DNA of 64,000 nucleotides, taken from NCBI RefSeq assembly GCF_004010195.1, contig NC_057759.1, forward strand, positions 1,347,212-1,411,211, in the 5' to 3' direction. The DNA is from Chiloscyllium plagiosum (lineage: Eukaryota). The notes under the pieces are model-generated. The model was not told the origin of the DNA and did no database searches. It saw only the letters and a list, made by a program, of their open reading frames with translations. Below are positions 3,497 to 55,230 of the stretch, one piece after another (positions within the stretch are counted from its first letter, which is position 1; the number at the start of each line of letters is the position of its first letter). The translations under genes and the position numbers were made by a program.

Positions 3497-3703
3497 GAGC
3501 AGAAAGTGAGGACTGCAGATGCTGGAGATCAGAGCTGAAAATGTGTTGTTGGAAAAGCGCAGCAGGTCAGGCAGCATCCAAGGAACAGGAGAATCGACGT
3601 TTCGGGCATAAGCCTGAAGAAGGGCTTATGCCCAAAACGTCGATTCTCCTGTTCCTTGGATGCTGCCTGACCTGCTGCGCTTTTCCAGCAACACATTTTC
3701 AGC
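3497..3703. mobile_element. Palindromic Penelope-derived mini-element with 13-bp flanking direct repeats
   Basis: Near-perfect ~85-bp arms around 3615-3620; TCTTCCGGTCTTC at 3484-3496 and 3704-3716. Confidence 0.85.
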
Positions 3704-3710
3704 TCTTCCG

Positions 3711-4860
3711 GTCTTCTGTCTGGATCATGTCGGCGACACCAGAAGAAATACATAACAAAAGCAGAGGTTAAAACAAAGGTGAGTCAGCTTTTCCATTATT
3801 TGTCAATTATATCTGCATACCACTTCTATCAGGCAGATCATGACTTCTTTCAGTCTTCTAACACAAGCCATTCGTATTCGGGTCACTCCCAGAACTTTGC
3901 TGCCTTTACATTGGTGTCATTCTTTGGACATATTGAGCAAATTGGGCCAGCTTCCTCTTGCGGTGGGTGGCATGCTTTATTAACGTTACTCTGATTCCCG
4001 AGATGGCCCCTGGTTTTGGATGGCTCAGGCCACTCATCTGCATGATATCACCTACGAAGACTGGATGCTCCATTTTCAAAATAAGGAAAGGTTTGTAATG
4101 AGGGGTATGCTGGGGGTAATCAGAAGACATTATGGGCTCAGTGGATATTCTGGAATAACATCCCCGTCCCTCATCGCTATCAATGTCATCCCCATCTTCA
4201 AACAGGGTCGGTGTAGGCTCGGGATTCTGAATAAAACGCAAGTTCTTTATTACAGCATTGTTGCTTTAACCCTTTTTTATATTACTCAGCCTCAGTGGCC
4301 TTACACTGTTTCTCCTGTGCCCTTCGTTTTTCATCTACACTTTCATCTACACATTCTTTTATCTTCTCCCAACTTTTGGGTGTTCCACCTGCTGTACCCA
4401 TCTATCACCCAATCACATGCATAATTCCTTCAACTGGCCAGTAAGTATCTTTTCATTTACTGTTGGCTTTATACTTCAATTCTCTAATTAATAATTAATC
4501 AATGCAGCCCTGCTTCAAATTAACCATGAGGCAAAGCCACACATCACTGTCAATGTGGTAAGGTACAAACTCAATCGATCTTTGCCAATTAATTCTGATT
4601 ATGTGTGATTCAGGGCTAATGCAATCGGTTCTTTTTCTGTAAAAAAAAATAACTAAGAGAATCATTATATCTAATTGAGAGATGGAAAAGTAACAAGTGA
4701 CTAAGACATTTTAAAAGCCATCAATGTAAACTGGGAACTCATTTATTCAAAATTCGATTTGAAAATGTAAAATGTGTACAGTTTCCATCTCGAAAACCAT
4801 CAGAATAGCCTGGCTCTAGTCACTTTATTTAAATCCCAGATTAGGTACCTTTAGCGGTTC
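3711..4860 (-). mobile_element. gag: Second ERV-A leader/gag fragment
   Basis: Colinear, diverged match to ~24105-25200 (shared TGTCTGGATCATGTC, TTTGGACATATTGAGCAAATT, GGATGGCTCAGGCC, ATTTATTCAAAATTC). Confidence 0.85.
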
Positions 4861-5381: not shown

Positions 5382-5600
5382 GAGTCAATAGTGTGGTGCT
5401 GGAAAAGCACAGCAGGTTAGGCTGCATCGGAGGAGCAGAAGAATGGATGTTTCAGGCATAAGCCCTTCTTCAGGAATGAGCAAGGACTTATGCCCAAAAC
5501 GCTGATTCTCCTTCTCCTCGGATGCTGCCTGACTGCTGTGTTTTTCCAGCACCACACTCTCGACTCTGATCTCCAGCATCTGCATTCCTCACTTTCTTCT
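5382..5600. mobile_element. Palindromic Penelope-derived mini-element
   Basis: Inverted arms GTGTGGTGCTGGAAAAGCACAGCAG... / ...TTTTCCAGCACCACAC; same family as 3497-3703. Confidence 0.8.
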
Positions 5601-14695: not shown

Positions 14696-14930
14696 GCTGA
14701 AAAATTTGTTGCTGGAAAAGCGCAGCAGGTCAGGCATCATCCAAGGAGCAGGAGAATTGACGTTTCGGGCATAAGCCCTTCTTCAGGAATCAGGAATCGA
14801 TTCCTGAAGAAGGGTTTATGCCCGAAACGACGATTCTCCTGTTCCTTGGATGCTGCCTGACCTGCTGAGCTTTTCCAGCAACACATTTTTCAGCTCTGAT
14901 CTCCAGCATCTGCAGTCCTCACTTTCTCTT
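14696..14930. mobile_element. Palindromic Penelope-derived mini-element with hammerhead cores in both arms
   Basis: ~95-bp inverted arms centred near 14795. Confidence 0.85.
14755..14790 (-). ncRNA. Minimal hammerhead ribozyme motif
   Basis: Minus strand ATTC-CTGAAGA-A-GGGC-TTAT-GCCC-GAAA-CG-TC-AATT: intact CUGANGA/GAAA/UH core, 4-bp stem II, palindromic ACGU in place of stem III; stem I weak. Confidence 0.6.
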
Positions 14931-17388: not shown

Positions 17389-17908
17389 TGATGAAATTAA
17401 TTAAGCAGTTGGTGAGTCACTCGCAGCAGTTCAACTTTGGGAATCAATAAATCAAGATACACAAACCTTGAGTTATTGACTGTTTATTCATGAGCTTACG
17501 CAGAGAGACAGTTGACCTAATGGTCACTAGTCACTCTGCCGAGATACAGAGAGTTGCATGATTATATAGGTTACAATCATTTCACAATTAACAAACTGTG
17601 ATTTTAAGTATAATGAGCAGGTTAGGCACTTTGCCCAGTCACAAGACTCAGTCACGTAGTGTCTGGACAATGTTGGTTAGTAGCTGATAAGCAAGTGTCA
17701 GTATACAATCTGTTCTTACTATAGAAGCGCATTTCCAAGCTGGGAAAGGATTCGTTCATCAGGCATCAGTACAGCTGCAGAACCAACCAACTCACTGAGC
17801 CTGGAAAAGTACGAACTTAACAAGCAGGCTCTAATATGAGAATCCAAAATGATTTCCAGACTTTTAATGTGCGACAAAATGACTGCTTTGGATCTAAAAT
17901 TTCCTACA
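17389..17908 (-). mobile_element. ERV-A 3' LTR (~520 bp) preceded by polypurine tract
   Basis: On -: purine run GAAAAGACAAAAAAGGAAA, then TGTAGGAAATT...TATATAA (~17563-17569)...AATAAA (17483-17488)...AATTTCATCA. TG...CA ends with imperfect terminal inverted repeats. Confidence 0.75.
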
Positions 17909-18152
17909 AATGTTTCCTTTTTTGTCTTTTCACCAAATCGGGGTACGTTCAGATGAACGAGCAAAAGCAGGGACATACAGGCCCCAGGTGGGCTATCGGG
18001 TAATGGGGGTTTAGAGTCGTCCAGGTAACTGTCAGAGTCAGGATCACCAAGATCGAGAGAGTAGGAGTCAATCAAATCACCATCTGGTGGGGAAGTGTCA
18101 TAAACAGGAAGCTGTAAAGGCTGAGAAGAAACAGGGGTATTTGTCTCAGCAT

Positions 18153-19947
18153 GCTCCTGCCCCACTGAACTCATTTCTACCTACCTCTACACTGTCCTAT
18201 CCCCCCCAGTCCAGGAAATTCCCACATACCCATGCCCTCCATCTCCTTCAAGACATCAGTTTCCCCGACCCCAACGCCTCATCTTCACCATGGATATCCA
18301 GTCCCTCTACACCTCTATCCACCATGACCAGGGTCTCCAAGCCCTTCGTGTCTTCCTCTCCCGACGTCCCCACAGTACCCTTCCAACGACACACTCATTC
18401 GTTTGGCCGAACTGGTCCTCACCCTTAACAATTTCTCCTTTGAATCCTCCCACATCCTCCAGACCAAACGGGTAGCCATGGGCACCTGTATGGGCCCCAG
18501 CTCTGCCTGTCTCTTTGTTGGCTACCTAGAACAGTCCATCTTCCATAATTACACCGACACCACTCCCCACTCTTCCTCCGCTATATTGATGACTGCATTG
18601 GCGCCACCTCGTGCTCCTGCGAGGAGGATGAGCAATTCATCAACTTCACCAACACATTCCACCCTGACCTTAAATTTACCTGGACCATCTCTGACACCTC
18701 CCACCCCTTCCTGGATCTCTCCATTTCCATTAATGATGACCGAATTGACACCGACATTTTTTACAAACCCACCGACTCCCACAGCTACCTGGATTACACC
18801 TCTTCCCACCCTACCTCATGCAAAAATGCCATCCCGTATTCCCATCTCCTCCGCCTCCGCCGTATCCACTCCCAGAAGGACCATTTCCACCACAGAACAC
18901 ACCAGATGGCCTCCTTCTTTAGAGACAGCAATTTCCCTTTCCACGTGGTTAAAGATGCCCTCCAATGCATCTCGTCCTCATCCCACACCTCTGCCCTCAG
19001 ACCCCACCCGTCCAACCGTAACAAGGACGGAATGCCCCTGGTGCTCACCTTCCACCCTACCAACCTTCGCATAAACCGAATCATCCACCGACATTTCCGC
19101 TACTTCCAAATGGACCCCACCACCAGAAATATATTTCCCTCCCCACCTGCAAACACCGTTCCCTCCTTGACTACCTGGTCAGGTCCACACCCCCCTCCAA
19201 CCCACCCTCCCGTCCTGGCATCTTCCCCTGCCACCACAGGAATTGCAAAACCTGCGCCCACACCTCCTCCCTCACCTCCATCCAATGCCATAAAGGAGCC
19301 TTCCACATCCATCAAAGTTTTACCCGCACATCCACCAATATCATTTATTGCATCCGTTGCTCCCAATGCAGTCTCCTCTACATTGAGGAGACTAGACACC
19401 TCCTAGCAGAGCGCTTTAGGGAACATCTCCGGGACACCCGCACCAATCAACTACACCGCCTATGGCCCAACATTTCAACTCCCCCTCCCACTCTGCCGAG
19501 GACATAGAGGTCCTGGGCCTCCTTCACCACCGCTCCCTCACCACCCGACCCCTGGAGGAAGAACGTCTCATCTTCTGCCTCGGAACACTTCAACCCCAGG
19601 GCATCAATGTGGACTTCAACAGTTTCCTAATTTCCCCTTCCCCCACCTCACCCCAGTTCCAAACTTCCAGTTCAGCACTGTCCCCATGACTTGTCCTACC
19701 TGCCTATCTTCTTTTCCACCTATCCACTCTACCTCCTCCCTGACCTATCACCTTCACCCCCTCCCACACTCACCTATTGTACTCTATGATATTTTCTCCC
19801 CATCCCCATCCTCTTCTCATTTATCTCTCCACCCTTCAGGCACACTGCCTGTATTCTTGATGAAAGGCTTTTGCCAGAAACGTCGATTTTACTGCTCTTC
19901 GGATGCTGCCTGATCTGCTGTGCTTTTCCAGCACCACTAATCCATAT
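18153..19947 (+). mobile_element. 5'-truncated Penelope-like retroelement (RT and GIY-YIG endonuclease) inserted in the ERV env tail
   Basis: MDIQSLYTSI, VAMGTCMGPS, FRYIDD, NCKTC and IYCIRCSQCSLLYIEET (GIY-YIG); pyrimidine-rich 3' region with hammerhead-like core at ~19858-19887; flanked by TCAGCAT at 18146-18152 and 19948-19954 (candidate TSD). Confidence 0.9.
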
Positions 19948-19954
19948 TCAGCAT

Positions 19955-20288
19955 CAGTGGGGAGCAAAAACGGGCACAGCATTGTTTGTGGAAAATAATG
20001 CTAAGAGAGAGCAAAATAAAAATCAACGAGAACCATATAGTCTCTGCAGGAGTGTAGAAACCCATAGGCCAAGCAAACAACTCATCCAAGTCCTAAAATC
20101 CCAATGGGCTTTAGTGTCATGTAGGGAGGAGGCCGCATTGTGAATATGTGCGGCAATGTTCGTAATGTTCTCACTGGAGTCAGGGATGGAGTTACAGCAG
20201 TCAGATCCAATAATGACGCAAGTACATCCGTTATCAGCCAAGCGGTAGACGAAAGCCATGCATTTTTGGAGAGAAATGGTCCAGACAA
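19955..20288 (-). pseudogene. env: ERV-A env TM remnant (immunosuppressive domain, CX6CC, membrane anchor)
   Basis: TISLQKCMAFVYRLADNGCTCVIIGSDCCNSIPDSSENITNIAAHI, compared with the consensus LQNRMALDYLLA..GG.C......CC.YIPD; CX6CC at 20194-20220. Anchor FSLIFILLSLSIIF-HKQCCARFC follows a frameshift. Confidence 0.9.
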
Positions 20289-20289
20289 G

Positions 20290-21984
20290 CAAGGACTTAA
20301 TGACATCACAGGCTCTAAAAAGAGACAGTGCAAGATAGCAGGCAATGGTGCATCCCTCCCAGATAGTCTCAACGCCTTCTATACTCGCTTTGAGCAGAAT
20401 GTCGGCGGAGAGGTAACACCTATTTTGACAAGTCCTGACGAATCTTTCCCAAGAGCCACTGCATCAGAAATCAGATCAGTTTTTCTTCCTGTGAATCCAA
20501 GGAAAGCGATCGGACCAGGCAGAGTACCAGACTGTACACTCAAAATATGTGTAGATCAACTCGTAGAGGTCTTCCCGGACATCTTCAAACTCTCCCTGCA
20601 GCAGGCCACTGCCCTGTCTGTTTCAAGAGGACCAACATCATCCCTGTGCCTAAGAAGGCTGATACAGCATGTCTCAATGACTATCGCTCAGTGGCCCTAA
20701 CTCAGTGGTCAGGAACTGCTTTGAAACGCTGGTCATGGCATTAATCAACTCCAGACTCCCTACTATTGTCGACGCATTCCAATTTGCCTGTTGGTCCAAG
20801 AGATCCACGTCAGATGCCATATCTCTTGCCTTTCACCCCTCCCTAGAACATCTTGACACCAAGAACAGCGATGTAAAAATCCTTCTCATTAATTACGGTT
20901 CACACTATTACACAATTATCCCCTCGAGTCTGATTACTAAACTTAGTGATGTCGGACTAAGTCCCACTCTTTGCAAGTGGATCTTCAGTTTCCTGACCCA
21001 CAGACCACAATCAGTGAAAATTGGGGGCTATATTTCATCCTCACTAACATTCAACACTGGAGACCCTCAGGTGTGCGTACTCAGCATCCTACTGTTGTCA
21101 CTGTATACCCATGGCTGCGTCGCCAAATACCAGACGAATGCCATTTGCAAGCTTGCTGATACACCACCATTGTCAGTCGAATCTCAGATGGCAACGAAAC
21201 AAAATACAGACGGGAGGTGGAAGACCTGGAAAAATAGTGAACAGAGAATAACTTAGCTCTCAATGCCAGCAAAACCAAATAACTCATTTTTTTTCCTTTC
21301 AGCGGGATGTTACTCATGCCCCCCTACACATTAACAGCACAGAGCTGGTTCGAGTGGAGTGTGTTAAGCTCCTGGGAGTGGTCATCAACAACAAGCATTC
21401 TTAGAATCTTCATGTGGATGCAATGGCGAAAAGGCCCAACAACGTCTCTTCTTCCTCAGGCAGCTGAGAAAATTTGGCATGACAGCAAATACCCTTGCCA
21501 ACTTTTATAGGTGCCTCATCGAGAGCATTGTGTCTGGTTGTATCAATACCTGGTATGGAATCTGCATTATTCAAGATAGGAGACGGTTACGGAGAGTAGT
21601 GAACTCGGCCCAGACAATCACGAAGGCCATCCTCCCATCTATAGAATCCATCTCCCAGGCCCCCAGTGAAGGATAGGCTGCCAGCATTCTCAAAGATCCA
21701 TCTCACTCTGGCAAAGATTTTCTACAACCTCTACCATCGGGAAAAGGTACAGAGGCCTGAACGCATGCACCAGCCGGTTTCTACTCTACTGTTGTTAGAA
21801 TACTGAATAGACTCACAAACTCTTAGCATTTACCTGTACCTGTGTTTTTGATTTTTGCCGCTGTTTACCTTTTATTTACTTATCTATGCTATTTAACTAT
21901 GTGATCTGCCTGTATTTCTCGTAAGACAAAGCTTTCACTGTGCGTCAGTACACGTGGCAATAAGTTCAATTCAATTAGATTCAG
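20290..21984 (+). mobile_element. 5'-truncated Rex1/Babar-type LINE inserted in ERV env
   Basis: QGLNDITG...LPDSLNAFYTRFE, NPRKAIGP, IIPVPKK..ACLNDYRSVALT, NFYRCLIESIVSGCINTWYG, RRRLRRVVNSAQTI; ends in an AATTC/ATTCA-type repeat tail. Confidence 0.85.
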
Positions 21985-22036
21985 TCCCAATGCTTCCATA
22001 TGCTTCCTGTAATGGGGCGACCAGAACTGTACACAA

Positions 22037-22660
22037 TGGGACAAAAGGACAACGTAACTTTAATAAAAACAGCCAGTCCAGGAGGTAGGCAGCCAGGGGT
22101 AGGCCTTTTGCCCCCAAATGAAATCACTGCCAACAAATGATTGCATTGGGTCCCAGTCTAAAAGGTGGCAAAAGAGGAATTATTGGCAGTCTTGTTGGAA
22201 ACACAGTGATTAATTATGCTTCTGTCCACAGTATAGCGGTAAACAGACAAAGAAAGGAGGATGTAGTGAAGGCATTTAATGAATCCAGCTTGCTATTCTG
22301 AAAGATGGTTGCTTTTAGTACTTCCTAGGGATGTACTCTTGGCCGTGGCAATGGTAAGGAACAAGCATGAGAGCTTATGCTGATTGCCAATGGATTTTGT
22401 AACAGCAGCACAACGACCCTGATGCAACTACGATTCATTACAGCAGGGTCAGATTCATTAAAAGGTATGGATCTCAGAAGGATCCCTCCCTTGGAATAGA
22501 TTAGAATATGGGCACAATCCCAGCAGCTAGAGCGCTTTAACTTATGTGCTTAAAGGGTATGCCATGTAAAGAAAGCTGTTGAAATGTAATTCTGTTTTGT
22601 TAGAGGCCACTAGGCTGTCCACACTGCACAAGATCAAACTGAGCCATTCATAGAGAAGGC
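22037..22660 (-). pseudogene. env: ERV-A env SU remnant
   Basis: NSFLYMAY.../SSCWDCAHILIYSKGGILLRSIPFNESD (CXXC at 22514-22525) and DFIWGQKAYPWLPTSWTGCFY*SYVV, matching the gamma-type env CWxC and CG..AY..LP..WTG.CYL motifs. Confidence 0.85.
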
Positions 22661-22699
22661 TGATTATGTGTCTCTGACGGTGTTCCTACAGGGTAGCGC

Positions 22700-23710
22700 T
22701 CTTCTGCATTGCGTCCGGTGCGCCCATGCGGCTGCCCCATGACTTTGCTGAATGGGTGACCAGCAGGACTAGGAACGGGCCTTTCCAACTCGGCTCCAAT
22801 TTGCCCCGTTCCTAATTCTTAGGTTTGACGCGCATGTGAAGTAAACTTTGAAGACTTTTGGTTAACTGATGCAAATATTTCCCACTCGTTCAATACTATA
22901 GTGGCAGCTGTATCAGTTATTGGTATAATTTTGTCTCATCTGCGAAATGCATCTACTATTATTAGACAATATTCATAACAATGTGCGCGAGGTACTTGTA
23001 TATAAACAAGTTGTAAACAAGTAAAAAGACCCACCAGGCAAGGCATTGGTTAATAACTGCAGGGCATCCCTCTTACAGCATGTGTCGTGTCTGCATATAA
23101 ATTGAACACACTTCAGCTCTTTTCCTCGCTCGTTTCTGGAAATCTGAGTGCCCCCAAGTTTGTAGTAGAGTATTAACCATTCCCTCTTGGCCCAGGTATG
23201 TACAAATATGCACATAATCCACTAAAACAGGCAGCAGCAAAGAAGGAAAACAAACTTGTCCAGCAGGGGTCATCCACATTTTGGTTTGAATATCCTATTT
23301 TAGTTCATAGCTTGTGCCCTTCAGCAGGGAGCTTCTCCTGTAATTTATGTACCTTACTCAAGTCGGGCATACTTCTCCTCATATTATCTCTATCCGCATT
23401 TTACTGGGGACCCAAAAGGACAAGAGGTTTGAGGTGTAAGGCTCCCTGCTTGGCAGCAGCATTTACCTGCTCATTCCTTCGGAGGCTTTATCACTTGCTT
23501 CAGCGTGAGCCGAACATCTTGATAACTGCCTGATTGATTGGACAAAACAGCATTACTATTATGCTTCCACGTGAAGGTTAAACATCCTTTATGTTCTCAC
23601 AAGGCTCCGTAATCGTGGTTACACCATAATCACAACGACGAATCACTGCACATTAGCAGATTTTCCTTTTGATAGGATGCAAGCATGTCGATCCCCACTT
23701 TAGCTCCAAG
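22700..23710 (-). pseudogene. pol: ERV-A pol remnant (RNase H and partial integrase; protease and RT absent)
   Basis: Read across frameshifts: RNase H ACILSKGKSANVCSDS..YGV.HDYGAL*EHKGCLT and AVIK/CSAHAEASDKASEG/NEQVNAAAKQGA; integrase HHCC-like VHICTYLGQEGM...CSIY; core start FTCLQLVYIQVPRAHCYEYCLIIVDAFRR*; C-terminal KLEPSWKGPFLVLLVT (22761-22800). Confidence 0.88.
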
Positions 23711-23719
23711 GTAACATTA

Positions 23720-24950
23720 ACGACACATCATTCCCCAATGGCCACATTTCCACAGTTAAAGAATTGGTCAGCCATTTGTCCTTAGGGGATTTCGCTGTCT
23801 TTTTCTTTGTCTCAAAGTTGTAATACTGGGGCCGGCATGTCCCCATTTCTAGGGTACCCTTGGGAAAGGTTTGCTCAGTAGTGTTCGCTGGTTTGGCATT
23901 TGAGGTAGGTTCCACTTCCAGTGGGTATTCTGGTCCCAATCAACACTGTCAGGGCTGGCACATGACATTGGGATCGCGAGGGCACTGGACATAATCGGTT
24001 TTACTTGTAACTTGCATCCTGGTTCAGTCTGCTTCCGGCCATCCCAAAAGAAAACCACTGCTCACCTTATTTGTGAAAGGAAATTCCTCAACTAGTTCAT
24101 GTTGTTTGTCTGGATCATGTCAGTGACTCCAGGAGGAAAACATTGCAAAGCATGGGGTTAAACAAAGGTAAATTAGCTTGTCGATTACTTTTTTCAATTG
24201 TGGGCTATATACCATCTCCATCAGACAGATGCTCAATGGTTTCCGTCTTATAACACAAGCCATTCATATTCAGGCTACTCCCAGAATTTTATTGCGTTTA
24301 TATCTGCATACTCCTTTGGACATATTGAGCAAATTAGACCGCTACGTTCTTATGGTCAGGGGCATGCTTCATTAATATTACTCTAATTCCCAGGATGGCT
24401 CCTGGTTTAGGATGGCTCAGGCCGCTCAACCTCATTATATTGGCAATAAGGACTGGCTACTTCATTTTCAAAAGTGGAAAGGTTTGTAATATGGAGTGTG
24501 TGATAGGGACAATCAGGAGATGTTAGTGGATCAGCGGGTATCCAGGAATAAACCCCCATCCTACTGCCCTATCAGTATCATCCCCATCCTCAAATAGGGT
24601 CGATATGCCAGCCATAGGTTCCAGATTCCGAGTAGAATCTAAGTTTCTTATTTTACAGCGTTGTTGTTTTAACCCGGTTTGTATCTTCCTCAGCCTTAGT
24701 AGTGCCACACTGTTTCTCATGTTCCTTTTTTTTCATCTACCAATTCGCAGCCAGCTATTAACATCTCCCACCTTTTGGGAGTTCCATCTGCTGTACATGC
24801 CTCTATACCCCAATCCCATGTAGAATTCTTTCAAATGGGCAGTAAGGTATCTTTCCATTCTTCAATTAGCAAAAAATTAACACAACCATGCTTCAAATTA
24901 ACCACGAGGCAATGGGACAAGTCACTGGCAATGCGTGAAGGAATAAAACC
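23720..24950 (-). pseudogene. gag: ERV-A gag remnant (putative MA, partial CA, CCHC knuckle)
   Basis: CA C-terminal-like LFNPMLCNVF/PPGVTDMIQTNNMN*LRNFLSQIR*AVVFFW; zinc knuckle remnant (C>F)FNCGNV/GHWGMMCR at ~23721-23766. Confidence 0.75.
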
Positions 24951-27104
24951 AAGCAATCCTGACAATTAATTCCGATTTTGTGAGTCAGGGCTAATACAAT
25001 TGGTTCTTAAAAATAATAACTTATATATAATTCAGAGGTGGAAATTGAACAAGTGACTAAAATATTTTAAAAGGCATCAATATAAACTGGAAATTCATTT
25101 ATTCAAAATTCAATATTTAAAATGGAAAATGTGCAAAGTTTCCAACTCTGAAAACCATTATAATTACCTGGTTCTAGTCCCTTAATTTAAATCCCACATT
25201 ATGTTTCTTAAGCCCTGGACAACTTCAAAATAACATCCTAACTGCAAGAAGGCAAGCGTTCTAAACACGTCCGAACCACCCAATCCACATATGATGCAGA
25301 CTTCAGACGTTTAAATACTAGACCCCTTAAGTCCATCTGTTCTACAATGCTCCCAAAAGCCTACATTTTAATTGCATATGTCTTGCCTTTGTTTAAAATC
25401 TCGAATTTTCCAAATTAGACTCAAACTTCAACTCTTCAGTCTATTGAGCGAAGATATATTTCTAATCATAGATGACCCTTTTCACTGTCCACAATACCAA
25501 TAGGTTTGGTGTCAGCTGCAGCGTTACTAAGCATGTTTTCTATATCCTCATCGAAATCACTTGTATAAAGGATAAACTGAAGTGGACTCAGCGCCCATCA
25601 CTGTGGAGCAGCACTGGTCAAAGGCTTTCAGTCCAAAAACAGAACCCTCCATTTTTCTGGAAAAAAATCTTTATTTTGGGAATACTATTCATAACAAATC
25701 ACGATTTGTTCAATTTCACAACGTGCCCCTACTAAAATACGATCTCACATATTTTCATTTCAGTAGGAAGTCAGTGTTTCTTTCAGTAATTAAATGATTT
25801 CAGTGAGAGTTTGTTTAAATTGTAACCCACTGCTTCATTCAACCACAAGTTTAATTTGAATAGAATGTGGAGGAGGTGGTGAACAACATCATGGATGTTA
25901 GATATTTGTGTCCCTGAAAAAGAAAGCAGGATTTTCTTCGTAATTGTTCTGTAGCATACAATCTCGTTTATCAGGGATTACAGGAGTAATTCATTTTGTA
26001 AAATCGTAACGTGGGAATACAAAATGGGAGAATCAGGCAAATTACAGTGTTAACGTTGCACGTTGAATTGTCATCAATAAGTTATCTGGTGCCAAATGCA
26101 CACTGTTGTACATGTGTAGTTTGCAAAATTCAGAAGAGTTTCTTTTCAGATTGAATTAAAATAAGCCTTCTAATGCAGGTTTCAAGGGGAATTGCTCATC
26201 CAACAACATGCACTGCAGTTCCATGACCACTCAGCAGAGGAATTCAGACAATTAATTGACACAGGGGAAATTAAAACCTGATCTTACAAATATGATATAA
26301 CAATAAGCCTTCATGCGAATACCGACTTTGGCAGGGGTGTCCTGATTAGGGAGGTTATCTCATCAAGAACTCCTTGACTAGCAGCACTTATTGATGATTG
26401 ACAAAGAAAGAACAATTCTCGTCAGGCAAATGAGTGTCTGATCATCAGATGTGAAGGAAGACCGAAGGAAGAGTTCCCTAACGAGACAAACATGAGAACG
26501 CAAGATTTCAAAACAGGATTAGGACATTCTACTCATGAAGCCTGTTCCTTTTTTGAATCGTGGCTGGTATATGTTTCCAACCCGTTCGCTTGCCTTCTCC
26601 CCATAACGCTTGAACCCATTTGTCATATGCAAATTACCAAAACCTACTTTTGTTTCAGAGAGTTGCTAAGCAATTTCACAAACACTGGAACAGTTAGTTA
26701 GTTCAACTGCATACAGTAAGCAAAATATGATTCTCAGGTCAGCAAATTAAGTCTCACAATGCAATCTGGCCCTTATCAAATCACTGGTGCAGTTTACCTA
26801 TCATGTCAATCAATGATTTCTGAATCTAGTTCTGCCGACTGTTTGATTCTTATGCAATGTTTTTGTATGAAGTTTTGCTACTGACGTATCCTGGAAATGA
26901 ATTCTCATACAAGTTTTTGATTCTCCAAGACAAAAGCATAAAATTAGTGATGATTCTTTTGTTCACTTCATTGACTAGTCATCTCGAGGCATCAAGTCTA
27001 CAGCTTGCTCTCATATAAGAGGTTATTCGCCTGTTAATTGTTACATTTAGTACTAAATGTCTGTTGAAGCGCAGATTTTGTTGCAATTAAACCTCAGGGT
27101 TTTC

Positions 27105-35872: not shown

Positions 35873-36116
35873 ACAAAGTTAAAAATCACACAACACCATT
35901 TTATAGTCCAACAGGTTTACTTGGACGCACTAGCTTTCAGAGCGCTGCTCTTTCATCCGGTGGTTGTGGAGAATAAGATTGTAAGAGGCAGGAAAATATT
36001 ATTTCCTCCAATCTTATTCTCCACAAACACCTGATGAAGAAGCAACACTCTGAAAGCTAGTGCTTCCAAGTAAACCTGTTGGACTATAACCCGGTGTTGT
36101 GTGAATTTTAATTTTG
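35873..36116. mobile_element. Palindromic mini-element of a second Penelope terminus family
   Basis: Arms 35873-35981 and 36009-36116 are reverse complements; each has a hammerhead-like core. Confidence 0.85.
36028..36062 (+). ncRNA. Minimal hammerhead ribozyme motif (stem II decayed)
   Basis: CAC-CTGATGA-AGAAGCAACACTCT-GAAA-GC-TA-GTG with stem I CAC/GTG. The mirror copy (35928-35962, -) has a perfect stem II AGAGC-AGC-GCTCT but a CGGATGA core mutation. Confidence 0.6.
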
Positions 36117-42700: not shown

Positions 42701-44840
42701 GACAGGATGAGGGTGGGGTGGGGCCTATTGCTCATGAAGCAGGATGAAAGTGGGGAATGAAACCTGCTGTATAAGGAATGGGATGGGATTTGGGACACAA
42801 CCTGTTGCTAGGGAAACAGGTTGGGAATGAGAGAGGAATATGTTGCTTGGGTAAGAAAATTGGAATGTGAATTGCAGTTGATGCTGATGGAATGCATCGG
42901 GTGTGGATCGGAGACAGTTGCTTGTGGAACAAAATAGGAGTACGACAGTAGTAAGGAGCGGATTTGGGGCCTGTTCTTAATAGAAATGGATATACGTGAT
43001 GCTGATGCGTGTTGCTAACAAAGCAGGATGAGAAAGAGGGTGGATGATATTGCTCATGGAGAAGTATGGGATTTGGGATGGACCCTGTTACTAATGGAAC
43101 AGGGTAGGAGTGGGGAATGCACCTTGTGTTCGATGCAATAAAAAAGTAGTGGCACTGGAGACTGTTGTCAATGTTGCTATGAGAACGCACCCTTTTGCCA
43201 GGAAACAGGATGGGAATCAGAATGGAGTCTGCTGATGGGTGAACAGGATTGGAGAAGGAAGAAATCCTTTTGCAAATGGAGTAGGACAGGAATGGAGGAA
43301 GAGCCTGTTACTAGAGAACCTAATGGTCGGCAATTGGGCCTGTTGCTGGGGCAACTGGATAGAGTGGGCATGAAAACTGATATTATTTGAACAGAATTTG
43401 AACAGAATTATTTGAACAGAGTTAGGATTGGTTAGTTAGTAAAGTAACTGTATGAGAAGGTTTGGAGCTTGTTGCTCAAAGTAAAATAAGGTATGGTTTC
43501 GGATCCGTTGCTAATGCAGCAGGACGAAATTGGGAGTGGAGCCTTTTGCTTCCAAAGCAAGATGACAGTGGAGTTGGAATATGTTGCTCGGGGTACACAA
43601 TGTGATTGGGGATGGAGGCTGTTGCTGTTAGAATAGAATGGAAATGGTGTAAGATCCTGTTGCGAGGAGAGCAGGTTAGAAGTCGGATTGGAAAGGGGTT
43701 TTAGGAAATAAAGAAAGGAATGAAGTGGATCGTGTTGCTAACAGAACACAATAGGTGATGTGATGGAGCCTGTTACTGATGAAACAGGATGGAAGTTGAA
43801 GCAAATATCGTTGGTCGCAGAACAAGATGAGTGTGGGAATCACGGCTGTTGATAATGGAAACGAATGGGACCGGGGCTGAATCCTCTTGTTAGGGAGCAG
43901 AATGGGAGTTGGAATTAAGCCTGTTACCAGGATGACATAATGGGAGTGGCTGTGGACCCATTGTTAACAAACAAGATGGGAGTTAGAATGGATGCCTTTT
44001 ATGAGGGGCACAGGAATATATTCAGGATTGAGTCTGTAGCTGATGGAACGGGAAGGGTATAGGTTTGAAGTCTGTTGTGGAATCAATGCAACGGCAAGAA
44101 GTCTGTTGCCCGGAGTTCAGGATAGTTGTGGAAGTAGGGTATTTTGCTAATGAAACCGGATGGCAGTAAAGTTGGGTACTGTTGCCAGAGATGCAGACAC
44201 GGAGTTGGATTTTTGTCTATCTCTAGGATAACAGAATGATAATGAAGTACTTAACTATTGGGGCTCAAATGAAGTGGGGTGACGGCTATTGTTAATGGAA
44301 CAGGATGGAGTGAGGGTGACACTTGTTGTTAGTGTAACAATTTTGGGGTGTGACAGGTTCTTGTTGTTCGTGGAAGAGGATGGCAGAGTCTGATGGAGAC
44401 TGTTGTTTGGTAACATGTTTTCGAGTGCTGATGGATGTTGTTGTAAGGGAAGCAACATGCCAATGGGGTTGCAATGGGAAAAGGGCAAAGGTTGGGCTGA
44501 AACTTGTTTTTGGGGAATGAATGGAGAATGCTGACGGAAGAATTTGTTAATGGAATTAGGGAAGTGGTAATGAATTTATTGTGAGGGGAAGTGAATGGGT
44601 GTGGGGTTGGACTCTGTTGTAAGGTGAACAGGAAGGGACTCGTGATGGAGCATAACAAGAGAATGCTCAGGAAGTGAGGATGGAGCCTGTTGCTAATGGA
44701 ACAGAATTATAGTGGGAATGGGGCATTTTTCTTAGGTGAAAACAATGTGATTATGGATGGTGACTGTTGCTGAGAGAAAGGATGAGAGAGTGGTTAGAGA
44801 ATTTCGCTTGGGAAGTCGGATGGGAGCAGAGTGGGAACAT
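42700..44840. repeat. Degenerate ~37-38 bp G-rich minisatellite
   Basis: Approximate consensus GCCTGTTGCTAATGGAACAGGATGGGAGTGGGGATGGA. Confidence 0.85.
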
Positions 44841-46611
44841 ATTATTATTTCTCCTCGTCTTCATGTGTTCCATACTGTTACGATTAAGACAGCTACTCCT
44901 GGTCATAGCTAACAGTATCCTGGGCCCGAATGGTGGCTAGATTTGCCTGTGTACCAGTACTGCGCAGTTGTATGGCTTCCTTATGTTCTTGGAATCAGGT
45001 ATAAGCTTATAAATAACTTGCCACTGTTTTTGTAAAAACGGCTGGAATGGGTTTTACTATTTTTTTTTATCTCTTCACATGACTTTTTTTTCTTAAGGGC
45101 TGTATGATCTCTTCGTTTTCCTCTGGAACTGGACTAACAGGCTGATTAACTTCATGTTGTTCCAGTGGAATAGTTTTAAGAGGCTGAATGATCCCCTTCG
45201 GTTGCTGTGTAAAGGTTTACTATTCTCAGTAAGCATTATCTGTTCCTGTGAAGCAGAATCAATGGGTTGAATGAGCCCCCTCTCTGCATTAGAAACTGTG
45301 TAGAAAAGATGAATGGGTACGTTATAAAATTTAGTTAGTCTAAATGACTACCACCTCTTCCACTCTATCAGGCTTGAGAGGCTGAATGACCTCCTCCTGT
45401 TCCTCCATAGTAGGATGGAGAGGCAGAATGAACTCAACCTGTCCTTTTGTGATATACACGAGTGGCTGAACGCTCTCCTTATGACGCCCTGTAAGAAGCC
45501 AAAAGGCCGAATGACCTACTCTTGTTCCTCTGTAACAGACTGGAGTAACTGAATGACCTTCACATGTTCCCTTTTAATGGACTCGAAAGGCTGAATGACC
45601 TCTTCCTCCATTTCTGTAAGAGACATGACAGGCTGAATTACTTCCTCCAGTTTCCCTATAACAGACATGACAGCCTTATAAACTTTCACTTCTTCCTATG
45701 TAACAGTCTTGACAGACTGAATTATCTCATCCTTATCCATGTAAAAGTCTCAACAAGCTGAATGGCCTTCTCTTGCGCCTGTATCAAAAACCCAAGACGG
45801 TAAATGGCGTCTTCATGTTCTGCTGTTACAGACACAAGAATGGCCTAATCCTGTTCTCCCGTGACAGACTCGAATGGCTGAATGCCTTTCCACATTCCCC
45901 CTAAATAGTCAGGACAGGCTGAATGACCTATTCCTGTTCGTCAGTAAAAAGCACGAGAATCTGAATGACTTCCTCATGTTCTCCTGTAGCAGACTCAACA
46001 AGCTGCATAACCCACTTTATTCCCCGTAACAGACTCAAGAGACAGAATGACTTCCTTGCTTCCCCTTGTAACAGACTCAACATACTGCACGACAAGTCCT
46101 GTTCCTGTGTAACAGATCCAAGAGGCTGAATGACCTCTCCCTGTTTCTCTATAACAGTCTGAAGAGCAGGAATGATCTCCTCTTTCCCCATATTTGATTT
46201 CAAAGATTGGATTACGCCCGCCTGTTCCCATGGAACAGACTCATGAAGCTGAAAGCCTTCTGTTCCTCTGTTGCAGACTCGTGAGGCTGAATGGCCTCTT
46301 CCTGTTCCTTTGCAACACGATCGAGCGGCTGAATAATCTCGTTTTGTAACAGCCTGGAGAATAGGAATGATCTCATCCTGTCCCTCTGTATGAGAGGGGA
46401 AAGGGTAAATGACATCCTGCTGAAGCAATGTAAGGCACTGAGAAGCTGAATGGCCTCCTGATATGTCTCTGTAATTGACCCGAAGGGTGAATGATATCTT
46501 CATAATCGTTTGTTACAGAAACGGATGGCTCAATGATTTCCTTCTGTTCCCCTGTAAAATACTCAGGCTGAAAGACCAACTCTGTTCGTGTCTAACAGCT
46601 TTTGTTCAGAG

Positions 46612-46901
46612 TAGATTAGATTAGTTTCCCTACAGTGTGGAAACCAGTCCGCACCGACCCTCCAAAGTGTAACCCACCCACGCCCATCTTCGTCTGATTA
46701 ATGCACCTAACACTATGGCAATTTAACATGGCCAATTCACCTGACCTGCATATCTTTAGACTGTGGGAGGAAACCGGAGCAAACCCACGCAGACACGGGG
46801 AGAATGTGCAAACTCCATAGAGACAGTTGCCCAAGGTTGGAATTGAACCCAGGACCTTGGTCCTATGTGGCGGCAGTGCTAACCACTGAGCCACCGTGCC
46901 A
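46612..46901 (-). mobile_element. tRNA-derived SINE inserted in the minisatellite
   Basis: Minus strand GGCACGGTGGCTCAGTGGTTAGCACTG...GGGTTCAATTCC; AATCT tail. Confidence 0.9.
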
Positions 46902-47074
46902 CCTTTGTGCCAGCTTTGTAGGTCAAAATGACCCCTTGCTTTGAAAGTGGCTCCAGAGGCTGAATGACTTCCTTCTGTTCCCCTATAACAGACTCGCTTC
47001 TTGAAAGGCCTCATCCTGTTCAGACGGAACTGGCTTGAGAGGCTGAATAACCTTTTCCAGTTAAAACAAAGAAG

Positions 47075-47400
47075 ACGAAAAAAATTGCAGATGTTAGAAA
47101 TCAGAAACATAATAGGTGTTCCTGGAAACCCTCAACAGGTCTGGCAGCAACTCTGGGGAGAACTAAAAACAAAACATTCTGGATATTACACCGGGTCAGG
47201 CAGAATCCATGGAGAGAAAGCAGGGCTAACGTTCCGAGTCATTATGACTCTTCTTCACAGCTGACGTGAAATATGGAGAGGGCAGCATTTAATCAGCGTT
47301 AACATTTCCCGTCCACTGAGGTCACTGGACCTGAAATGTTAACTCTGTTAGACCTGATACATTATTTCAGCAATTTTGTTTGTTTCTCATATTCTCCAGT
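47075..47400. mobile_element. Penelope-type termini, partly inverted
   Basis: TTGCAGATGTTAGAAATCAGAAAC...; degenerate hammerhead-like cores at ~47228-47262 (-) and ~47315-47346 (+). Confidence 0.55.
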
Positions 47401-47909
47401 TCATATTTAACAGGATCGTGAGGTTGAATACCCTCATTGTGTCCATCTATAACAAACTCAACATGCTGAATGATCTTCTGCTGTTAGTCACTTACAGACA
47501 CGCGAGGCTGAATGTCTTCCACCTGTTCCTCTGTAATAGGGCCAACAGGCTCAGTGACTTTCTCTTTTGCTGTATTCAATTGCAATACCGTTATATCTAA
47601 CTTAATCCACGCATTTTCTAACTCAATCCACTCCATTTCAAACTGCAGGATGGAATGTATTTGCTAAGGTCACTGGTCCCTCGGGTTTCAATCACCTTAA
47701 GTCCCTAATTACGTCTGTCTCATTACAAATATAGAAGTGGCTGTTGGCAAGTACGCTCGACCCAAACTGCTTTGAAAACAATCTCATGGAGATTTCACGG
47801 ATTCATTTTTCTTGGGATCCGCAACCAGCCGATGTTTTTTCCAGCACACTTGCATATTGAAATCCGCAACGATTATTACGGTTATGTCTTTCTCAGACGC
47901 CATTTCTTT

Positions 47910-55104: not shown

Positions 55105-55230
55105 CCAGATTCTGGATTAGCGGTGCTGGAAAAGCACAACAGTTCAGGCAGCATCCGAGGAGCAGTTAAAATCTGCTCCTCGGATCCTGCCTGAACTGCT
55201 GTGCTTTTCCAGCACCACCAATCCAGAATT
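55105..55230. mobile_element. Palindromic Penelope-derived mini-element lacking the hammerhead centre
   Basis: ~55-bp inverted arms around TTAAAAT at 55166-55172. Confidence 0.8.

Follow-up and report, generated by a model that had tools for sequence, protein, structure and literature searches.

What occupied the minus strand between positions 25213 and 17389 of the Chiloscyllium plagiosum stretch analysed here (contig NC_057759.1, positions 1,347,212 to 1,411,211; 64,000 nucleotides, hereafter the window), and how much of it is left? A preliminary description, made from the sequence letters alone, had read across frameshifts a reconstructable class I endogenous retrovirus (ERV) in the order gag with a CCHC zinc knuckle, RNase H, integrase, env, polypurine tract (PPT), and long terminal repeat (LTR). 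We conclude, with a probability of roughly 0.9, that the proviral remnant spanning 25213 to 17389 is a dead, heavily deleted class I ERV with a gamma-type envelope, and that a long interspersed nuclear element (LINE) and a Penelope-like element have inserted into it. RNase H, integrase, env, purine tract, and LTR do follow one another on the minus strand as claimed, but the CCHC-bearing gag does not stand with them, the candidate knuckle being frameshifted and the gag comparisons at or near null scores; of the layout LTR-gag-pro-pol-env-PPT-LTR, only the part from RNase H to the 3′ LTR is seen, and gag is putative. The fragments are readable, but "reconstructable" was an overstatement, as about half of the provirus is gone: ~4.3 kb of viral sequence are left after subtracting the insertions, and the complete references that we fetched measure ~8-13 kb. 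Absent are the 5′ LTR, protease (PR), reverse transcriptase (RT), and the first part of RNase H, as well as ~125-140 codons of the integrase core and ~70 env codons including the furin site and fusion peptide. The preliminary description had passed over the loss of PR, RT, most of the integrase core, the env cleavage and fusion region, and the 5′ LTR. The damage reaches the catalytic or fusion core of each gene that survives: the remnant has no capacity to encode a working enzyme or fusogen, and it makes no functional product today.

The features are listed below by position in the window, strand, and identity; SU and TM are the surface and transmembrane subunits of Env, and HR1 and HR2 its heptad repeats.

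23720-25213, minus: probable 5′ leader and shortened gag remnant, placed by position; a 74% identical second copy and pol-like read depth.
23720-23760, minus: degenerate CCHC zinc knuckle, frameshifted, first Cys lost; placed by position only.
23434-23687, minus: RNase H, its C-terminal ~60% (positions 58-152 of a 152-position profile; 31.0 bits).
22885-23330, minus: integrase N-terminal zinc-binding region and start of the catalytic core, by profile and alignments; breaks off at ~22885.
22694-22885, minus: integrase C-terminal domain with GPF motif; MLVIN_C, 37.6 bits.
22038-22690, minus: SU of env, preceded by a putative signal peptide; the N-terminal CWxC is kept, but stops and frameshifts interrupt the reading.
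20290-22037, plus: high-copy LINE insertion splitting env; Pfam ALKBH8_N E 2.4e-9, depth hundreds to thousands.
19948-20292, minus: env TM with immunosuppressive domain (ISD), CX6CC, HR2, and membrane anchor, by protein homology.
18153-19947, plus: 5′-truncated Penelope-like retroelement; GIY-YIG E 0.018 (below cut-off), RT motif, depth >7000.
17909-18152, minus: env cytoplasmic tail or 3′ untranslated part and polypurine tract, by sequence reading; SU-like low-copy depth.
About 17932-17911, minus: purine tract directly before the LTR, by sequence reading.
17389-17908, minus: 3′ LTR of 520 bp, TG..CA, with imperfect terminal inverted repeats, TATATA at 17568, and AATAAA at 17488.
3717-4855, minus: a second, separate piece of this ERV family, limited to the leader and gag part; 74% identity.

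Env and pol homology

Because single motifs arise by chance in the six frames of the window (CX6CC 12 times, CWxC 9 times), the retroviral identification is carried by homology rather than by motifs. The TM frame (20292-20026, minus) is free of stops for 89 codons and passes from the ISD directly into CX6CC; it finds 100 proteins at E≤1e-3 and 6 at E≤1e-10 (best 1.7e-13, 49% identity), and its 38 matches at E≤10 in the PDB are filovirus GP/GP2-type glycoproteins and syncytin-1 (best E 0.004). SU (22037-22760), which was not a search query, scores 104 bits against P0041 (67 of 160 residues identical; null 17.7±2.3) in an alignment crossing 3 stops and 2 frameshifts. P0041 is XP_072421847, an ERV envelope of Chiloscyllium punctatum and the nearest named envelope (42% identity in SU, 47.5% in TM). 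The next best SU scores among 58 proteins belong to P0008 (96), P0026 (85.5), P0004 (62.5), and P0035 (59.5); four of the top five are named chondrichthyan envelopes; the 11 exogenous gamma-type reference envelopes reach only 19-30.5 bits. The CWxC near 22520 aligns with the same motif in P0041, P0008, and P0026, placing a CXXC in SU, and together with the ISD and CX6CC in TM this supports classing the predicted Env as gamma-type. CWxC, ISD, CX6CC, and hydrophobic anchor are thus all present, as the preliminary description had it. Its suggestion of a cartilaginous-fish origin also fits, as judged from the envelopes: names were present for 12 of the 23 envelopes checked (3 of which were chosen after their SU scores were seen), and 7 of the 12 are chondrichthyan, 4 from bony fish, and 1 from alligator.

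Env is also incomplete. In tblastn mapping the SU, whose CWxC-bearing stretch is 22598-22048, stops near 22048, and TM restarts near 20286; the ~70 codons that should lie between them (furin site, fusion peptide, HR1) were found neither in the LINE interval nor elsewhere in the window. Because close homologues retain the furin site, fusion peptide, and HR1, the gap is read as a deletion in this copy, and the LINE occupies the site where the codons were lost. There is no Pfam match in 17389-18200, and no cyclin-like gene between env and LTR.

The pol remnants are equally fragmentary. On a 41-sequence class I profile, RNase H is the best of 92 tiles (remaining tiles 14.5±1.7). On an 8-sequence Pol profile, the N-terminal part of integrase, the start of its core, and its C-terminal domain score 47.6, 41.5, and 37.6 bits (45 other tiles ≤22.6), and protease, RT core, thumb/connection, both halves of RNase H, and the remaining integrase core are at background across the window. 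Frameshift-aware alignment to 116 RNase H-integrase proteins gives a best score of 84 bits (null 19.5±2.6), and the ~320-330 aligned pol codons contain 6 stops and 8-9 frameshifts. The integrase had been described by its HHCC and GPF motifs: GPF stands, the Pfam model MLVIN_C matching that region at E 2.8e-5 (under its curated gathering cut-off), but only 2 of the 4 HHCC ligands are retained in the alignments. Relative to class I references and profiles the integrase core is short by 123-141 codons at ~22885, and the second and third catalytic residues of integrase fall in the region that this deletion removed. Because the RNase H remnant starts ~35 nucleotides past the putative gag knuckle, ~710 pol codons are lost, comprising PR, RT, connection, and the first RNase H catalytic motifs; even if the knuckle is misassigned, 25213-23687 is too short for gag, protease, and RT. 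Other searches added little: i) a PDB sequence search with the integrase pieces gave no relevant match; ii) an Atlas search with the integrase N-terminal frame returned an Integrase_H2C2 cluster at 0.90 with low recognition, which is a lead only; and iii) in word-indexed protein searches with the TM and integrase frames, 0 of 21 and 0 of 96 candidates scored.

Placement among class I retroviruses

With reference groups labelled via Pfam on one example per group, fish and amphibian class I pols score highest against the window pol (66-84 bits, with L001 at 69 and L005 at 66), followed by gammaretroviruses (27-50) and the epsilon-layout references L043-L045 (41.5-46.5); L023 scores 20.5 and foamy viruses 15.5-28. 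In three of three trees, from which the poorly aligned P0186, P0188, and P0190 were excluded, the window pol falls within class I (clade support 96/87, 100/97, and 99/99) and outside the gamma clade, on a long branch that has no supported sister in an open class I polytomy. The RNase H-integrase grouping thus supports assignment of this copy, which has no RT, to class I, and with the TM and SU homology it bears out the earlier call of a class I ERV with gamma-type Env. The epsilon-like lineage proposed with it fares less well. By the approximately unbiased (AU) test, neither a gamma placement (p 0.41, 0.12, 0.13) nor an epsilon placement (p 0.29, in the set in which gamma gave 0.13) is rejected, and the RNase H and integrase phylogeny groups the element with class I without favouring epsilon or gamma; the env of L045, a 12.7-kb record with a retroviral cyclin (Cyclin_N), is at null against both window env parts. 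Since its env is unlike that of L045 and no cyclin gene is present, the element is not a member of the genus Epsilonretrovirus.

Several observations weigh against identifying the locus as a class I ERV. No viral piece has a direct Pfam match above the curated cut-off: the relevant matches in window frames are MLVIN_C, ALKBH8_N, and a weak GIY-YIG only, the RNase H and integrase-core pieces have no RNase_H or rve match, and the TM frame itself matches nothing, TLV_coat included. The profile check that had been proposed (TLV_coat, RNase H, rve) therefore fails in its direct form, but TLV_coat is above cut-off in 30 of 30 scanned TM homologues and MLVIN_C is present below cut-off. The 8-sequence profile leaves the RNase H remnant at background (16.4 vs 14.5±1.8). 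Gag homologues, tested as 8 references against each of the two copies, then as 3, then as 1, are at or near null (best 23.5 vs 18.4±1.8, within ~3 standard deviations). RNase H-integrase profiles favour anamniote and unnamed class I sequences (112 bits, n=27) over gamma (43, n=11) and foamy (28.5, n=5; null ~16), but the first profile was built on more sequences than the other two. Class I profiles also guided the frameshift readings, so that the trees lean to class I; this bias is reduced in one tree only, built from 149 columns on which two guides agree. Of three column sets, AU rejects a position outside class I in just one (p 0.12, 0.043, 0.14). Finally, a single integration event cannot be demonstrated, because the 5′ LTR is missing and no target-site duplication of the provirus was found in the window.

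Leader, LTR, and insertions

At its 5′ end the remnant is cut at ~25213, adjoining another repeat fragment that is probably CR1-like by its motifs. The window holds no 5′ LTR, second LTR, or convincing primer binding site, and no tRNA genes. Because a second copy exists at 3717-4855 and read depth is pol-like, the leader/gag region is a member of a repeat family. Between 24107-25213 and 3717-4855 the Kimura two-parameter distance is 0.248, 3 of 26 indels are multiples of three, and the third-position excess is weak (45/160 vs 33/158 and 34/157); the second copy terminates at a palindromic insertion, 3531-3706. We infer the gag identity of 23720-25213 from position: a knuckle profile does not place the CCHC knuckle among the top 8 of 92 tiles, the best local match of the L002 gag knuckle does land at 23720-23760 but at null score, and neither an Atlas search with the gag frame nor a PDB search with the putative gag frame of the second copy found anything.

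At the other end, the PPT and TG..CA LTR are where they had been read, the purine tract at about 17932-17911 and the LTR at 17908-17389. The insertions previously placed at 18153-19954 and 20290-22036 are likewise real, and the former interval comprises the Penelope-like insert plus one copy of a 7-bp direct repeat that brackets it (19954-19948 and 18152-18146); the RT motif of this insert lies in an open reading frame (ORF) at 18549-19406. The LINE at 20290-22037 is presumably Rex1/L2-like, with a ~50-bp, presumably CR1-like piece at 21987-22037.

The window also contains short near-perfect palindromes at 3531-3706, 5382-5566, 14696-14894, 35874-36116, and 55109-55229, most of which have an arm in common with the end of the Penelope-like element (19856-19942). 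Separately, 42783-47561 consists of degenerate tandem arrays with ~38- and ~42-bp units and a strong GC-skew switch.

Copy number and the history of the element

Read depth was taken from two DNA runs (1.9 Gb read each, 80% threshold, 307-bp bins). Gag/pol bins have a depth of 25-57, the LTR 52-58 across 17414-17720, env-only bins 4.5-10, and the flanking end bin 1.3-2.6. This is a multicopy family with tens of related copies or more, or about 50-120 gag/pol copies if the genome measures 3-4.5 Gb, as we take it to do. Env parts, in bins about fivefold shallower than those of gag/pol, are rarer or more diverged among the copies, and copies with env are likely a minority. Because related copies skip 17596-17787 (one contig) and 24149-24245 (one contig and 12 reads), the family varies in LTR length and in gag-region length. 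In a single-cell RNA run, of which 2 in 100 reads were used, depth is <1 in gag/pol bins and 0 in two env-only bins; such libraries are 3′-biased, and these depths are weak evidence on expression.

The likely starting point is colonization of the germ line of a shark ancestor by an infectious virus from the fish class I radiation, which then multiplied to at least some tens of copies. The shortening of this copy could have come about by template jumps in replication followed by copying by an intact helper, or else after insertion; later retroelement insertions and then neutral decay would have completed the present structure.

How the protease and RT were lost bears on what kind of family this is. 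The protease- and RT-less layout could be that of a non-autonomous subfamily amplified by an intact helper, which would refine our reading of a dead class I ERV rather than replace it. Depth holds across the bin containing the gag/RNase H junction (29-31, with neighbouring bins at 36 and 43-46), other copies carry internal skips of their own, and reference L005, together with the full Pol P0238 in its cluster, shows that such derivatives arise. However, 307-bp bins are too coarse to reveal reads crossing the junction; the integrase core and env are cut too, so that there is no sign of selection for the retained proteins; the L005 junction differs; and the second copy in the window ends short of the junction. 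We regard such a subfamily as possible but, on balance, unlikely. In a fuller version, this would be a shark class I ERV lineage not yet catalogued, copied mostly as a protease- and RT-less, helper-dependent element in which the nucleocapsid end of gag is joined to mid-RNase H, with env carried by a minority of copies; it would then belong with a broader group of fish ERV derivatives, L005 among them, that have lost RT but kept env. That whole picture strikes us as decidedly doubtful.

The fivefold difference in depth also invites the idea that two unrelated ERV fragments, one from a common gag-pol family and the other from a rarer env-LTR family, came to adjoin one another or recombined after insertion, and env-pol recombination is frequent in anamniote ERVs according to Chen et al. 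2021 (bioRxiv 10.1101/2021.11.23.469661). We find this improbable: the integrase end at ~22694 runs straight into the env signal and SU on the same strand and with normal spacing, and families in which most copies have lost env are on record (cited in Chen et al. 2021).

Still less probable is that pol comes from a class III (foamy or snakehead-type) or Gypsy-type element which acquired a gamma-type env from elsewhere. Chen et al. 2021 do report class III ERVs that carry class I env, as apparently does PMC8278194, and placement outside class I is unrejected in two of the three AU tests; but foamy pols and L023 score near null where fish and amphibian class I pols reach 66-84 bits, Gypsy-like matches are at null, and an MLVIN_C match is present. 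That env is a working gene co-opted by the host can be dismissed despite the stop-free 89-codon TM frame, given the stops and frameshifts in SU, the missing cleavage and fusion region, the two insertions splitting the gene, and, as weak evidence, the zero depth of the two env-only bins in the one 3′-biased RNA run.

Comparison with known systems

The kind of element described here, a class I ERV with gamma-type env, is already known in cartilaginous fishes. Chen et al. 2021 count 25,498 gamma-type-env ERVs, spread over 37 species; 6 of these species are cartilaginous fishes, and 3 of the 6 have >500 copies. The authors distinguish epsilon-related and gamma-related Pol clades, and find orthologous ERVs in Chiloscyllium. 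The earlier remark that the ERVs of this group are sparsely catalogued is weakened by that survey. Han 2015 (PMC4422223) describes three elephant shark ERV lineages; Xu et al. 2018 (PMC6001957) find cartilaginous-fish ERVs spread throughout the retroviral tree; gamma-type Env, as defined by Hogan and Johnson 2023 (PMC9967133), is noted there to occur in many fish ERVs but not in exogenous epsilonretroviruses; and zebrafish has >2,000 ERV-like elements without RT (PMC8672886). No description of the present family was found in the openly readable literature, and the supplements of Chen et al. may contain the lineage.

For the specialist, then, the locus is no surprise and opens no long-standing question, and the copy is too decayed to be placed inside class I. 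Its value is as a further fossil of the class I gamma-type-env retroviruses of cartilaginous fishes, and as an example of a type of copy that RT-based surveys and ORF callers overlook. If the RT-less layout should prove to be the amplified form, it would be evidence of helper-dependent spread in a basal vertebrate.

Two further observations concern other elements among the references. In L002 (142-4670) and L003, a gag-like ORF with a CCHC motif is found downstream of env and on its strand, an arrangement that tandem proviruses or an assembly collapsed at an LTR might explain. In the P0020 cluster (P0241-P0247), gamma-type envelopes of 430-457 residues form one 90% cluster across Salmo, Oncorhynchus, and Salvelinus, which suggests a salmonid envelope gene kept by the host that may already be described (perhaps in PMC12813294).

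The known systems that resemble the present element do so to different degrees. Nearest in kind are the ERVs-GTE of cartilaginous fishes and other anamniotes (Chen et al. 2021), which share with it a class I pol, a gamma-type TM with ISD and CX6CC, a multicopy state, and no accessory genes seen; unlike them, the window copy has no PR, RT, integrase core, fusion peptide, or 5′ LTR. Elephant shark CmiERV lineages II and III (PMC4422223), likened by description only, are also chondrichthyan, env-bearing, and on the class I side, but they are defined by Pol and include complete proviruses. Gammaretroviruses (L008-L019) have a gamma-type TM, an MLVIN_C domain, and, like the window element so far as its putative knuckle goes, apparently a single knuckle, but they score low against it in both pol (27-50 bits) and SU (19-30.5 bits), and it falls outside their clade. 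Epsilonretroviruses (L043, L044, L045) share a class I pol (41.5-46.5 bits against the window RNase H-integrase) but their env has neither CX6CC nor TLV_coat, and the window has no cyclin-like gene.

Internally deleted, helper-dependent ERV derivatives are familiar from the ETn and IAP deletion forms of the mouse. A fish class I counterpart may be seen in L005 (2690-7673 of a metagenome contig), a class I element bounded by two LTRs. Its env is intact, and so is a single ORF of 1049 residues, in which a gag-like N-terminus continues without a frame change into the RT thumb/connection, RNase H, and integrase; this ORF gives no Pfam match for a knuckle, for protease (RVP), or for the RT core (RVT_1). 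The closest database match of L005, P0102, is in the same 90% cluster as the full Pol P0238. L005 may be a young RT-less derivative, from which integrase and env expression is still possible, and it shows that fish class I families do give rise to derivatives that lack RT while env stays intact. As a helper-dependent-type derivative, L005 resembles the window copy in having lost protease and the RT core while keeping env-side sequence and an LTR, and differs from it in its intact integrase and env and in the position of its junction.

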